The notes under the pieces: generated by a model
The model's input: the letters and a program-made list of their open reading frames with translations, nothing else
What the model was told of the DNA's origin: nothing
Databases searched by the model: none
Shown here: positions 9,968 through 63,469 of the stretch, one piece after another
How the letters are laid out: the number at the start of each line of letters is the position of its first letter
Numbering within the stretch: the stretch's first letter is position 1
Origin: Bdellovibrionales bacterium
GTDB taxonomy: Bacteria > Bdellovibrionota > Bdellovibrionia > Bdellovibrionales > UBA1609
Length of the DNA stretch: 64,000 bases
Assembly (NCBI GenBank): GCA_965219095.1
Contig: OZ244719.1
Span: 256,001-320,000, forward strand
Direction of reading: 5' to 3'
Program-made: the position numbers and the translations under genes

Positions 9968-11380
9968 ATACCATTTCCAAAAATTAATTCGACATTTTTT
10001 TAACGCATTGCGTCCTGGCTTTTTGATAAAACTCTGTTAAATTTTTAGAGTCATGTCGAAAAAAGATTTAGTTACACAGATTCAAGGGTATAATTTTCTA
10101 GCTACTTACAAAGTAGAAAGAAGTGCCAACATCAAGACAAAATTATTGGCTTTGCAGCATATGCAAGAAGGAAAATCGATTCAAGAAACAGCAGGTATGG
10201 TTTTGTATCACCGTCACAGTATCAAATCCTGGTTACAGTCTTTTTTTGTAGACTTTGATTACGAGGGATTGATAGATCGAGAAGGCAGAGGACGCAAGCC
10301 TCGTTTGCCAGTGACAGAAGAGGAGAGGTTCAAAATCAAGTTAGATGAAATTCAAGACAAAAGAGAGGGAGGAAGCATAGGAGCAAAGGAAATACAGAAA
10401 CTTTTAGCAGATGAATTTGACTGTTGCTATTCTCTTTCTGGGGTTTATGTTTCTTTAGACCGCCTTAATATTGTATGGATCAGTGGTCGTTCTCTTCATC
10501 CTAAAAGTTCATTAAGAAGCTATGGAACAGTTTAAGGAACATTTTCCAGAAGAGGTGGAGAAAATAAAGGAAAAGATTCAGACTAATAAAATAGAGATTT
10601 GGTGGCAGGATGAATGCAGAATAAGCTCAGCAAGGTTCTTTGAGTAGGATTTGGGCAAGAAAAGGCACACGGCCTAGAGTTGTGAGGCAAAGACAATTTT
10701 TATCCACTTATATTTTTGGAGCAGTTTGTCCGGATAGAGATAAAGGCTGTGCTTGGATTTTACCGGAATGTAATTCAGGGATGATGCAAATTCACTTAGA
10801 TGAGATATCTAAAAATATTCAAGAAAACTATCATGGAATTGTTTTAATGGACAGAGCCAGTTGGCATACCACAGAGACTTTGATAGTTCCTAAGAATTTA
10901 TCCCTGATGCCTTTACCTCCTTATAGTCCAGAATTAAATCCCATGGAACAAGTCTGGCAACAATTACGAAGGATCAAATTATCGAATGCATGTTTTAAAA
11001 ACTATGACCATATACTGAATACTTGTTGTGAGGCCTGGAATACTTTTTGCGATCAGGAGGGCAGGATTAAAAAATTATGCACTCGATCTTGGGCAAAACA
11101 ACAAGATGAATCAAGCTTGTAAATTAATTTGAACCTATAAATTAAATTGTGTAACTGATTTTTTTCATTTTAAATTTTACCCTCACTTTTTCACTTATTT
11201 TAACCCATCAATCGATTTACACAACAAATAGATATACCTGAAATAAACTTATCTTATGAAAACTTAAACTCACCTTAAAAGAAGTTTTTTTAAAACCTCC
11301 TAACTGAAACTTTTCCTTAAGTCAATTTTAAAATTTTAAATTTGAACATGAAAATGTCGAATTAATTTCTGTAATTGGTA
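9968..11380 (+). mobile_element. IS630-family element (type A), frameshifted, inserted in an inverted fragment of itself
   Basis: Matches 62228-63469. The flanks 9866-9967 and 11381-11413 rejoin as reverse-strand IS630 sequence (GGAGG-TA-AAGGCATC). Confidence 0.9.
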
Positions 11381-50144: not shown

Positions 50145-52795
50145 ATTTCTTCTATTTTATAATATTATGCCAATTACAGAAATTAATTCGACATTTTTAT
50201 GTTCAAATTTAAAATTTTAAAATTGACTTAAGGAAAAGCTTCAGTTAGGAGATTTTAAAAAAACTTTTTTTGAGGGGAGGTTGAGTTTTCATAAGATATG
50301 TTTATTTCAGGTATATCTATTTGTTGTGTGAATCGATTGATGGGTTAAAATAAGTGAAAAAGTGAGGGTAAAATTTAAAATGACAAAAATCAGTTACACA
50401 ATTTAATTTATAGGTTCAAATTAATTTACAAGCTTGATTCATCTTGTTGTTTTCCCCAAGATTAATCCTGCCCTCCTGATCGCAAAAAGTATTCCAGGCC
50501 TCACAACAAGTATTCACTATATGGTCATAGTTTTTAAAACATGCATTCGATAATTTGATCCTTCGTAATTGTTGCCAGACTTGTTCCATGGGATTTAATT
50601 CTGGACTATAAGGAGGTAAAGGCATCAGGGATAAATTCTTAGGAACTATCAAAGTCTCTGTGGTATGCCAACTGGCTCTGTCCATTAAAACAATTCCATG
50701 ATAGTTTTCTTGAATATTTTTAGATATCTCATCTAAGTGAATTTGCATCATCCCTGAATTACATTCCGGTAAAATCCAAGCACAGCCTTTATCTTTATCC
50801 GGACAAACTGCTCCAAAAATATAAGTGGATAAAAATTGTCTTTGCCTCACAACTCTAGGCCGTGTGCCTTTTCTTGCCCAAATCCTGCTCAAAGAACCTT
50901 GCTGAGCTTATTCTGCATTCATCCTGCCACCAAATCTCTATTTTATGAGTCTGAATCTTTTCTTTTATTTTCTCCACCTCTTCTGGAAAATGTTCCTTAA
51001 ACTGTTCCATAGCTTCTTAATGAACTTTTAGGATGAAGAGAACGACCACTGATCCATACAATATTAAGGCGGTCTAAAGAAACATAAACCCTAGAAAGAG
51101 AATAGCAACTATCACAATTCATCTGCTAAAAGTTCCTGTATTCCCTTTGCTCCTATGCTTCCTCCTTCTCTTTTGTCTTGAATTTCATCTAACTTGATTT
51201 TAAAGTTCTCCTCTTCTGTTTCTGTCACTGGCAAACGAGGCTTGCGTCCTCTGCCTTCTCGATCTATCAATCCCTCGTAATCAAAGTCTACAAAAAAAGA
51301 CTGTAACCAGGATTTGATACTGTGACGATGATACAAAACCATACCTAGCTGTTTCTTGAATCGATTTTCCTTCTTAAATATGGTGCAAAACCAATAGTTT
51401 TGCCTTGATGTTGGCACTTCTTTCCACTTTGTTAAATAGCTAGAAAATCATACCCTTAAATCTGTGTAACTAAATCTTTTTTCGACGGTAAATCAAAAAG
51501 ACAGGTCACTGGTTTAAGCCATGATAGTGACCCTAAAGTACTTGCAGAAGGAGGTGATTTTTGAGACAAATTCTAAACCCTTTAGCTGGCCTGGTTTTTA
51601 AGGCCTCAAAGGGTGTTTTCCCTTTTTTTCGATTAAGCCTGTATTTTTGTGAAGGCTTACTCGAAAAAAAGGAAAAAGCAAAAAAAAGATGTAAAATAGG
51701 ATTTCAAGACTTTATTTATAAATAAACCAACAAAGGAGGAAAATAAAATGTATGATCACTATATAGCCGTAGATTGGGCACAAAGTAACATGGCCATTAA
51801 GGATGACAGGCAAATCAAAAGATATTAAGACTATGGACACGATTTCAGATCTTGGGAATCTTCGTGCCTATTTAAAAACCCTGAAAGGTAAGAAGATATT
51901 GACTATCGAAGAGACTACAACTTCGACAGTGGTTGTATTCAGAATTAAAGGATAGTGTTGATGAGCTCATAGTCTGTGATCCTCTTCGGAACAGACTTTT
52001 AAGTGAAGGGGCTAAAACTGATAAAATTGATGCTGAAAAACTTGTTTTATTGTTACGCTCTGGCCTTTTGAAACCAGTCTTTCACTCAGGTGATGAATTC
52101 ATTTACCTTCGTAAGATTGTCAGTGGGTATGAAGATGTAGTTAAAAGAGGAGTTCGTGTTAAAAACCAAAGATCAGCTCTGTTTCGAGCTTCCCATCTTG
52201 ATGCTAAGAAGCAGACTCAATTAAAACGGGCAGAAGAGATATATTTGTTCTAGAAGGCTTAGATAAAGCTATCAGTGCTTATGGGGAGGAGAAAGCACGT
52301 TATGAAGCAGAGTTTAAGAGGCTAAGTAAAAAACACAAAGATATTAGAAATCTTAGTAGCATTCCAGGAATTGGTTCTATCAAGGCTATCAAGATTGTAG
52401 CCAGGGTTGTAGTGCCTCACCGATTTAAACGTAATTCCTGGTGGAGTGGACTGCGGACTTGTAAAGCTACATAAAATGAGTGGTGGAAGGTCTTATGGAA
52501 CTAAGAAGTCTAGGTTTTGCCCACAAATGAAAAGTGTTTTTAAGATAGCTGCACTCTCAGTTATAGGAAATAACAATAAATTTAATGATTTTTATGAAGA
52601 ATTGATCAAAAAAAATTTACCACCACACACTGCTAGAAACGTTACCAACTAGAAGAATTGCAGCTTTAACTTTAGGTGTTTTCAAGTCTGAAAAAAATAT
52701 AAACCTTATGGAGAACGTAAAAATGTAAATAATAATAAAACAACCTTATAAAATCATCTGTTTAAAGTTTCTTGCATAGTAAGTAACAATACAAA

Positions 52796-54714
52796 TAATG
52801 ACTTTATGAGGTGAGGATAGATAGCTTAATTACCTGAGTTCGTGCTCAAAAATGTACACTACAGACGGACGTTTTTTTGACAAGACTTTTTCCAATAGAT
52901 CTTAGTATTTTTTCTTGAACTTTATTCAAAGCTACTGTTTTGATAAGTCTAGTTTTATTTTTTCGGTCATAAAGATAGACATTATACATGCTACCGAGTT
53001 CTTCAAGAGCTTCCTCTGGAGACATCTGCATCTTTTCAAGCTTCATTTTTAGAATTGAAAGTATCAGACAAGATAAATAGCATATAAAGACATGTGATTG
53101 AACTCTGTTGTAAAGCCAATGACGAATTGGTCTCAAATTTGTTATTCCCTTTAAGGTCCTAAAAGATTTTTCAATTATCTCTTTCTTATAGTACAAATTA
53201 ACAATATCTTTTGCAGAGATCTTTTTTGTAGAAAATATACAAGAGTAACCATCAAACTCAGATTCTAAATTCAACCGATCTCTTCTTAATCTTCCTGTTG
53301 GAGTAAGGTATTTTTCCAAACCTGGTTTTATATTTTTATTTTTAGACAAAAGAATTTGTGCGTTTGCAATTTCGTCCAAACGAGATTCTCTTATATCTAA
53401 AGCTCTCCTTTGATTGTAACAAACAACTAAACGTCCTTTGATTTTTCCAACATTGTGATTAATGCTCTGAGCATACAAGGTACCACTTGATAACCTGATG
53501 CGATGGGATACATCAACAATAGAGTCTAGCCTTATCATTTTTCTAATCAAATCCTTCTCTTTTTTTCTGAGAGCAATCCCACAAAGCGTATTCCAGCCCA
53601 AATCATTGATTTCATTGAGGTTTCTCTCTGAAAAAATGCCTCTGTCGTAAACAAACATTCCTCCACTTAGTCCATAGTTTGCAAATCCATCGGATAAACT
53701 TAGTAGAGTCCTGCTATCGTGTATGTTTCCACTAAAAGTTTTATGAAACACTGGTATTCCTTCTTTTTGAGTTGTCACCAAACCAATTTGAATCAAAGGA
53801 TTTCCACGTTTCCCATCCTTACTCTTTCCTAATTTTCCAAGCTGACATTTGCTACCATAAAGGTATGTATTGGTAACATCGTACACCAACCCTTTTAGCT
53901 CAAGATTGTACCTTTTCTGAACACCTTGAAATATTTTCTTCTGTAAATTTTCTGGATCACTCTCTAAAGAATCTAGAGCAGAAAGCAAACGACTTTCGGT
54001 TAGATCCTCTAAATTTAGCAAAGTGTTTAAATCTGTTCTCTCATACCATTTTGGCATTTTTCTAAGGCTTTTGTAATCTAAACAGTGAGCATAGACCATG
54101 CTTAATATTTCATTGGAGTATTGGCCAAGAGATTTTTGCAAATCTATTTCCCTAGTATTTTATCTAAAACAAGCAAAGGACCATAAACCTTGACCTTTTC
54201 TATTTCAAGATCAGATGAACTCATTGAAATTACAGTTTCACCATTCTCTTCCTTCCCGATGTACCGAATATGCTTTTGGATAACTTTTCCATCAACCCTT
54301 TTGTTCTCTACTTCTGCAAGATATGTTACCTTTCCTCTTTTTATTCTTCTGATAAAGCTCATATTTCTCCCTCCTATAGTGTAATATATTACACTACAAA
54401 GGAAAATGCAAGGCAAGTTATTTTTTGTGATTTTATCTAAAAATCGAAAATTCCCCTATGAAAACTGAGATTTTTATGGAAAATGGGAAATTATAGCTTT
54501 GTAGTGTACATTTTTGGTCACGAATTTAGGTTAATTAGAGTGATATTTATAAAAAATTCATTTCGACGAATAGCACATCCTCTATTCCTGAAATTTACTA
54601 TAATCTAAGGTTTTAAATCTTCGGAATAAATTCATGATTTAAAACTAAAAAAGGTTTAGATAGACGCATGATAGGAATATGTTTTTTTTACAATGTGTAA
54701 AGGAAGAGTCATTA
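52796..54714 (+). ncRNA. Predicted bridge/seekRNA (52796-52832 + 54538-54714), interrupted by IS1634
   Basis: The rejoined sequence has nested stems enclosing loops that match both strands of the target and of the donor junction. Confidence 0.65.
52833..54530 (-). mobile_element. IS1634-like element with 7-bp TSD, frameshifted transposase
   Basis: TIR CCT(G/A)A(G/A)TTCGTG...AAAAATGTACACTACA with TTAATTA duplicated. Motifs YDVTNTY, YDRG, IEKSFR.LK and RPIRHW. Confidence 0.9.
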
Positions 54715-54940
54715 AAAAATGGAAAGGAAATGCAGGAAGTTTTTTCTTAGGTGATTAGAATATTCGTGACCGTATGCAAAAAAAATTTTTTATATTTTTT
54801 GTAAATGGAGAAGTGTTTTTTCTTGACATACTTTTTGATAGACACTCTAAAAATTTATAACAGAGTTTGATCAAAAAGCCAGGACACAATGTGTTAAAAG
54901 AATGTCGAATTAATTTTTGGAAATGGTATTATAAAATCCT

Positions 54941-62227: not shown

Positions 62228-63469
62228 ATACCATTTCCAAAAATTAATTCGACATTTTTTTAACGCATTGCGTCCTGGCTTTTTGATAAAACTCTGTTAA
62301 ATTTTTAGAGTCATGTCGAAAAAAGATTTAGTTACACAGATTCAAGGGTATAATTTTCTAGCTACTTACAAAGTAGAAAGAAGTGCCAACATCAAGACAA
62401 AATTATTGGCTTTGCAGCATATGCAAGAAGGAAAATCGATTCAAGAAACAGCAGGTATGGTTTTGTATCACCGTCACAGTATCAAATCCTGGTTACAGTC
62501 TTTTGTAGACTTTGATTACGAGGGATTGATAGATCGAGAAGGCAGAGGACGCAAGCCTCGTTTGCCAGTGACAGAAGAGGAGAACTTCAAAATCAAGTTA
62601 GATGAAATTCAAGACAAAAGAGAGGGAGGAAGCATAGGAGCAAAGGAAATACAGAAACTTTTAGCAGATGAATTTGACTGTTGCTATTCTCTTTCTGGGG
62701 TTTATGCTCTTTTAGACCGCCTTAATATTGTATGGATCAGTGGTCGTTCTCTTCATCCTAAAAGTTCACAAGAAGCTATGGAACAGTTTAAGGAACATTT
62801 TCCAGAAGAGGTGGAGAAAATAAAGGAAAAGATTCAGACTAATAAAATAGAGATTTGGTGGCAGGATGAATGCAGAATAGGCCAGCAAGGTTCTTTGAGT
62901 AGGATTTGGGCAAGAAAAGGCACACGGCCTAGAGTTGTGAGGCAAAGACAATTTTTATCCACTTATATTTTTGGAGCAGTTTGTCCGGATAGAGATAAAG
63001 GCTGTGCTTGGATCTTACCGGAATGTAATTCAGGGATGATGCAAATTCACTTAGATGAGATATCTAAAAATATTCAAGAAAACTATCATGGAATTGTTTT
63101 AATGGACAGAGCCAGTTGGCATACCACAGAGACTTTGATAGTTCCTAAGAATTTATCCCTGATGCCTTTACCTCCTTATAGTCCAGAATTAAATCCCATG
63201 GAACAAGTCTGGCAACAATTACGAAGGATCAAATTATCGAATGCATGTTTTAAAAACTATGACCATATACTGAATACTTGTTGTGAGGCCTGGAATACTT
63301 TTTGCGATCAGGAGGGCAGGATTAAAAAATTATGCACTCGATCTTGGACAAAACAACAAGATGAATCAAGCTTGTAAATTAATTTGAACCTATAAATTAA
63401 ATTGTTTAACTGATTTTTTTCATTTTAAATTTGAACATGAAAATGTCGAATTAATTTCTGTAATTGGTA
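62228..63469 (+). mobile_element. IS630-family element (type A) with an intact 354-aa transposase (62313-63377)
   Basis: Single ORF with QDE, MDRASWH and PPYSPELNPME. TIR TACCA.TT.CA.AAATTAATTCGACATTTT with TA flanks. Confidence 0.95.

Follow-up and report, generated by a model that had tools for sequence, protein, structure and literature searches.

An IS1111-like element in a copy of IS630

We analyzed a window of 64,000 nucleotides (C1:256001-320000; contig OZ244719.1, GenBank assembly GCA_965219095.1) from a Bdellovibrionales bacterium, in which a decayed copy of an insertion sequence (IS) of the IS630 family is interrupted at its start codon by an element of the IS110 family, hereafter the invader. 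The assembly comprises 3.11 Mb and is 94% complete. Coordinates prefixed with C1 or C2 refer to its contigs, and all others are window positions (Table 1). The final 8.6 kb of C2 (C2:2388495-2397094) are 99.99% identical to C1:220448-229047, probably as an assembly overlap; one invader is therefore counted twice below except where removal of the duplicate is stated. Two uninterrupted IS630 copies in the window have three additional nucleotides, CAT, at the insertion point, and the original prediction was that this allele confers immunity in an arms race between the two elements.

The transposase pseudogene of the invader exceeded the cut-off of the IS110-family domain PF01548, and intact homologs (up to 84% identity) have both PF01548 and PF02371 (DEDD, RuvC-like). 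The model NF033542 stayed below its cut-off of 140 bits for the fragment (50.7) and for the intact homolog P0121 (114.8). The left end reads GGTAAAT followed by the subterminal repeat CAAAAAG, and the right end reads CTTTTTG-ATAG-AC, in which AC is common to the target. CAAAAAG is exact at both ends after a left extension of 7 nt and the repeat is imperfect beyond it; the right extension measures 3 or 4 nt, according to where the shared AC/GAC is placed. The IS1111 group is characterized by subterminal inverted repeats of 11-13 bp and extensions of 7 nt (left) and 3 nt (right). In an un-nested copy, about 400 bp of non-coding DNA follow the transposase gene and include both guide halves, and the half complementary to the top strand (54535-54542) lies 5' of the other (54561-54567), likewise in the homologous locus L037; both are characters of the IS1111 group. 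Judged by these sequence features, the invader is an IS110-family element of IS1111-group anatomy with a putative guide 3' of the transposase. In the window, its guide RNA gene is interrupted immediately 5' of the first guide half by a nested IS1634-family element, which is flanked by the 7-bp duplication TTAATTA (52826-52832 and 54531-54537).

The family of the host was assigned from an intact relative at 62313, whose DDE_3 transposase scored 215.9 bits against NF033545 (cut-off 100). Matching 3-bp flanks, TAA or TTA, were observed in 47 of 55 full-length IS630 copies; the usual duplication of IS630 elements is TA.

Table 1 Features of the window discussed in the text.
Feature	Position	Strand	Remarks
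Invaded IS630 copy, decayed	50168..54928	-	Matching 3-bp TTA flanks, 50165-50167 and 54929-54931
IS1111-group element (invader)	51487..54843	+	Ends set by 44 left-end and 37 right-end rows genome-wide
DEDD transposase pseudogene	51749..52730 (end approximate)	+	PF01548 31.2 bits, cut-off 29; frames relative to intact homolog P0121
Nested IS1634-family element	52833..54530	-	NF033559 250.9 bits, cut-off 100
Left target arm TTTCGAC	51480..51486	+	Codons 1-3 of the opposite-strand IS630 gene
Right target arm ACTCTAA	54844..54850	+	GTG allele, without CAT
Guide half TTAGAGTG	54535..54542	+	Pairs 8/8 with CACTCTAA (right arm, top strand); slot confirmed in homolog L037
Guide half TTTCGAC	54561..54567	+	Identical to left arm (pairs with bottom strand); slot follows own left flank in L033, L037 and L038
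Candidate donor-binding stretches AAATTTAC (54591) and GATAGAC (54659)	54591..54665	+	Match the element's own ends; predicted
Second target TTCGAC-ATTTTTA near IS630 right end	50180..50200	+	Free here; matches the other guide allele
CAT allele, frameshifted IS630 copy (two 160-aa frames)	10045..10060	+	Reads TTAGAGT-CAT-GTCGAA
CAT allele, IS630 copy with intact 354-aa gene	62305..62320	+	Reads TTAGAGT-CAT-GTCGAA

Alleles of the start-codon target

On the minus strand, the invaded copy reads TTAGAGT (54850-54844) up to the invader and GTCGAAA (51486-51480) beyond it. When the two were rejoined, GA-GTG-TCG stayed in frame, giving the predicted GTG start that fits the guide, and the CAT sequences predicted for the two uninterrupted copies agreed base by base.

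Genome-wide, 131 left ends of IS630 were located, and 124 of them were classed at the start site; the other seven were truncated short of it. That uninterrupted copies carry CAT held for both free copies in the window but not across the genome: CAT was present in 62 of 104 free ends, 41 lacked it (25 perfect targets and 16 mismatched), and one had an extra GAC. All right junctions of the 20 invaded ends were of the GTG type, so that CAT was used in 0/20, and the junction expected from insertion into CAT was absent genome-wide. The window by itself, where both free copies are CAT, would also fit a loss of three nucleotides at or after insertion, or an assembly artefact. This is highly improbable given the 25 perfect GTG sites that stand free, 14 of them with intact genes, and a guide that itself encodes the short form, unless those free sites all arose by precise excision.

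The TTAGAGTG guide pairs with the GTG start site at 8/8 positions and with CAT through 2 pairs and 1 wobble. In the CAT allele the right arm is displaced by 3 nt relative to the guide, and this allele would probably be refractory to the invader. The junction alleles and the poor pairing thus point to the predicted immunity, as read from few independent events.

Guide alleles and their sites

The stronger finding concerns the guides: near-identical invader copies carry different guides, and one switch follows a path of G:T wobbles that links two IS630 sites. The first half in the 22 guide rows was TAAAAATG in 7, TTAGAGTG in 7, GTAGAGTG in 2 (one an assembly duplicate), TAATAGCG in 2 and another sequence in 4; both TAATAGCG rows also had an altered second half. 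The site of TAAAAATG + TTTCGAC is located about 25 bp in from the right end of IS630, and TAAAAATG pairs with it at 8/8 positions. The TTAGAGTG guide reaches this right-end site with 5 pairs and 2 wobbles. Right-end targets stood free in 47 cases. As a control to which no escape story attaches, the left terminal repeat matches the first guide at 7/8 positions in 46 free copies, and 0 junctions were found there. The third guide, TAATAGCG + TGTTAAC, had no perfect target genome-wide; two candidate sites fit it in part.

As an outside check, nine homologous loci from other genomes were inspected. In L033, L037, L038 and L053, the second-half slot agrees with the left flank of the respective element, and in L035, the twin of L053, it does so with one mismatch. 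The first-half slot fits the right flank in L037 and has no clean fit in L035 or L053; in the remaining four loci the guide region is lost or broken. Stretches resembling the candidate donor-binding segments were present in L033 and L037. The predicted guide assignment holds. Folding of 54530-54700, from which the nested element has removed the 5' stem, gave z = -1.27 and no support for a special structure, and the un-nested guide RNA folded into a simple stem of -13.2 kcal/mol (no shuffle control).

Additional guide variants and targets were observed. Second halves TTCTATC and GCTTTATC occur at C2:1617280 and C2:625726; left junctions ending in TATC are present, and an inverted left end adjoins the guide slot. 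Insertions of the invader are also found within the terminus of a further abundant repeat (TCATATAAC-GTCTATTACA; 37 free sites, e.g. C1:229762), which the third guide matches only via a one-base bulge, and in a three-copy repeat (CTGGTTAAC-GCATTAAG).

A broken invader in IS630 shells

No intact invader transposase was found in the assembly. All of its 39 transposase pieces are broken, and the longest open frame is 149 aa. The pseudogene in the window has four frameshifts in common with other copies and one private. Relative to P0121, the shared frameshifts were present in 17/19, 13/13, 14/14 and 16/16 of the pieces scored, among them copies inserted at unrelated targets and copies whose guides differ. 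Among the matches listed, short-read contigs from four runs of one study had no indel at the shared frameshifts, and the private one was present, a weak indication. The same contigs contain the CAT join. A circle junction of the invader was absent from the assembly and from these contigs, which cannot establish absence. Since dead copies are precisely joined at at least four targets, either a helper recombinase acting in trans or wide gene conversion would be required. IS1111 guides are described as acting in trans (PMC11187229), and the poor match between cis guides and flanks fits this.

Simple insertions should give equal numbers of left and right junctions. With the main element only and the duplicate removed, outer junctions exceeded inner ones at the start site (15 vs 4, p=0.019) and at the right end (23 vs 6, p=0.002). 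A doubly invaded IS630, with both invaders in the same direction, was found at C2:1421822-1423889, and a whole shell, consisting of right end, invader and an 87-bp left end between matching TAA flanks, at C2:1748080-1749672. One marker was common to 16/20 invaded left ends. Most junctions thus appear to derive from a small number of events, multiplied in the form of IS630 shells with the invader inside. The naive p=2e-7 for all-GTG junctions overstates the evidence; at the present allele share, the probability that all are GTG is 0.15-0.009 for 2-5 independent insertions.

In 5/20 invaded ends, the outermost right-end bases of the invader were joined to a leader belonging to a second IS110-like element. 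Leaders of this second element in which the invader's right-end bases replace the outer ones were seen at C1:327049 and at C2:599902, 890892, 959416, 1136251 and 1317774, a pattern that points to inversion or exchange involving the subterminal repeats. The host itself includes a frameshifted lineage, with a one-base insertion near codon 150 in 26/55 full-length copies and a second in 24 (window 10500-10640), which seems to have been copied in trans.

Origin of the CAT allele

Summarizing these results, we consider it moderately probable, as a whole explanation, that guide-specific insertion into a resident IS630, CAT refractory as a by-product and spread in shells account for the locus. An IS1111-group element with a 3' guide RNA would have inserted into IS630, directed by the first guide (TAAAAATG + TTTCGAC) to the right-end site and by the second (TTAGAGTG + TTTCGAC) to the GTG start codon, with the right-end site still reachable via two rG:dT wobbles. 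The refractoriness of CAT would follow from guide specificity, of which the match and the junction alleles were observed. CAT and GTG would be a standing polymorphism of two IS630 lineages, reshuffled by recombination, with no sweep demonstrated. In doubly invaded copies, recombination between the two invaders may have removed the IS630 interior, and the resulting shells were probably copied by the IS630 transposase. The invader would have been frameshifted before it spread, as a passenger or with the help of a recombinase now lost or unassembled.

Several observations weigh against this explanation. The start-site right junctions carried the start guide in cis in four cases and the other guide in three, and no clean association between cis guide and flank was found across copies; because the cis guide often misfits its flank, the assignment of guides to sites rests on complementarity. 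Whole shells numbered only two, the second with unmatched flanks. The older A/TATC left-end lineage (31 ends) has 16 invaded ends and no perfect target among its 15 free ones (8 mismatched GTG, 6 CAT and 1 extra GAC), the pattern expected from differential survival. TTCA at the right end was linked to CAT (21/23 TTCA copies, p=0.0014), which shared descent can explain. The median nearest neighbour differed by 0.29% for invader copies vs 0.64% for CAT copies; the invader copies are thus no older, and CAT copies were probably exposed to the invader. Finally, the genome is 94% complete.

These points bear on the possibility that CAT was selected as an escape allele: an insertion into the start codon would abolish expression of the IS630 transposase, autonomous copies acquiring CAT through mutation or gene conversion would have outlived others, and TTCA would have served likewise against the earlier guide. 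In the invaded AATC lineage, as in the A/TATC lineage, the only copies still intact at full length belong to a young CAT clade. The guide is mismatched in 16/41 free GTG-length sites vs 1/62 CAT sites, and the invaded right-end inner junctions are all TTTA (7/7, one a duplicate), against 37 of about 90 free ones with TTCA. The indel begins at most 1 nt from the insertion point, a chance of about 2.4%, the share of IS630 positions that have a common indel no more than 2 nt away. Nevertheless, with 83 common single-nucleotide polymorphisms and 6 common indels in the family, some common polymorphism falls in 51% of 14-nt IS630 windows, and both alleles occur in both IS630 clades. The CAT survivors represent a single burst, and most invaded ends belong to one shell family; many of the mismatched sites are duplicates or have the same synonymous TCA variant. 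The 25 perfect start sites and the 47 right-end targets remain free, and no counter-guide matching CAT or TTCA was found in the assembly. Furthermore, 23/37 full-length CAT copies share a frameshift, which makes their start codon irrelevant. On balance, we regard escape as rather unlikely. The predicted arms race, which would need CAT to be derived and selected, is not yet shown by this genome: no sign was seen that CAT spread by virtue of its protection, the junctions are non-independent, the invader is broken, no guide adapted to CAT was found, and the susceptible allele carries 14/22 of the intact IS630 genes (14/25 perfect GTG copies vs 8/61 CAT copies).

The polarity of the alleles was also considered. 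A 77%-identical relic is of the short GTG type, as escape would have it; against this, two 75% relics are long with ATG, the outgroup L023, whose left end differs, starts with ATG, and allele and age were not clearly associated (p=0.13). The outgroups L021 and L022 are without the start region, and homologous IS630 proteins start with MSKKDL or similar, from which the start codon cannot be inferred. A search of 41 genomes yielded only two other carriers, and the tree of the 55 full-length copies, a mosaic without outgroup, cannot root CAT against GTG.

Another explanation is that the three nucleotides are a scar of faulty excision or insertion by the recombinase, spread by IS630 copying and conversion. 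An extra GAC was found precisely at the insertion point at three sites, covering both targets (C1:350167, C2:966265 and C2:1423831; the alignment used is unreliable upstream of the shared end), and is a possible excision or insertion footprint. In addition, the free extra-GAC copy has the same left-end and body haplotypes as the young intact CAT clade. However, the added letters differ, GAC vs ATG on that strand, three changes apart, and a template for the extra letters was not found. CAT copies are also the more diverse class (mean pairwise difference 2.8% vs 1.5%), which argues that CAT is not recent. We therefore consider a scar improbable.

It is unlikely, but conceivable, that these elements combine into a stepwise chase, in which the right-end hit left TTCA survivors, the guide then moved to the start codon by way of two A-to-G wobble changes and one further change, leaving CAT survivors through conversion or perhaps a recombinase scar, and the dead invader hitch-hiked in IS630 ends.

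The word TTCGACAT occurs in both IS630 terminal repeats and, inverted, across the CAT start codon (62305-62320). It could be an internal transposase-binding site, giving CAT a role independent of the invader.

Comparison with known systems

The invader resembles the IS1111 elements with 3' seekRNAs, ISEc11, ISKpn4 and ISPa11 (PMC11187229), in having a DEDD transposase followed by a long non-coding region, subterminal repeats preceded on the left by 7 nt, and a top-strand complement 5' of the bottom-strand match. Unlike them, it has a short repeat (7 exact bases), is frameshifted in all copies, and shows several guide alleles among copies about 98% identical in one genome. That IS110-family elements target other mobile elements is already known, from IS4321/IS5075 in Tn21 terminal repeats and from ISEc21 in an IS3-family transposase gene (PMC11187229); here, in contrast, the host is IS630, with two sites, both polymorphic, and the invader seems to be borne as cargo by its ends. 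Natural redirection between related elements is known as well: in ISEc11/ISXne4 and ISEc21/ISMch6, few guide-base changes accompany a new target (PMC11187229). Those are distinct elements (ISMch6 has 72% protein identity), whereas the change here occurs within one genome and one element, along a wobble path.

The bridge RNA of IS621 combines low mismatch tolerance with accepted rG:dT pairs (PMC10849738, PMC11208160), which would explain both the exclusion of CAT and the dual reach of the start guide. Unlike the invader, IS621 has a 5' RNA with the opposite guide order, and its off-targets occasionally carry target insertions, so that immunity need not be absolute (PMC10849738, PMC11208160). 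ISPpu9/ssr9 is similar in that a module spreads via an IS110 transposase it does not encode (PMC12288879); there the module is a small RNA gene, and here it is a whole dead element, probably also borne by IS630 ends. Nothing on target escape from IS110/IS1111 guides or on IS630 shells was found in the titles and abstract openings listed, mainly of papers outside subscription.

These results bear on how IS110/IS1111 guides switch targets naturally and whether targets respond. The genome provides a test set of near-identical guide alleles, target alleles (GTG, CAT, extra GAC, TCA, TTTA and TTCA) and a predicted wobble path, and suggests that an IS invaded by an RNA-guided element can become the vehicle of that element.

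Interruptions of the guide gene

IS1634-type elements were inserted at the same TTAATTA within the guide gene in 5/7 copies with the TTAGAGTG guide (window 52833-54530, C1:171193-172885, C1:526972, C2:1475214 and C2:2072309). They occur in both orientations with three end types, which implies at least four insertions. TTAATTA is absent from the reference copy bearing the other guide, and the preference of the IS1634-type elements is for AT-rich 7-mers. The guide region is likewise interrupted near the same place in the homologous loci L034 and L052, and the interruption in L052 resembles what we take to be the start of a group II intron.

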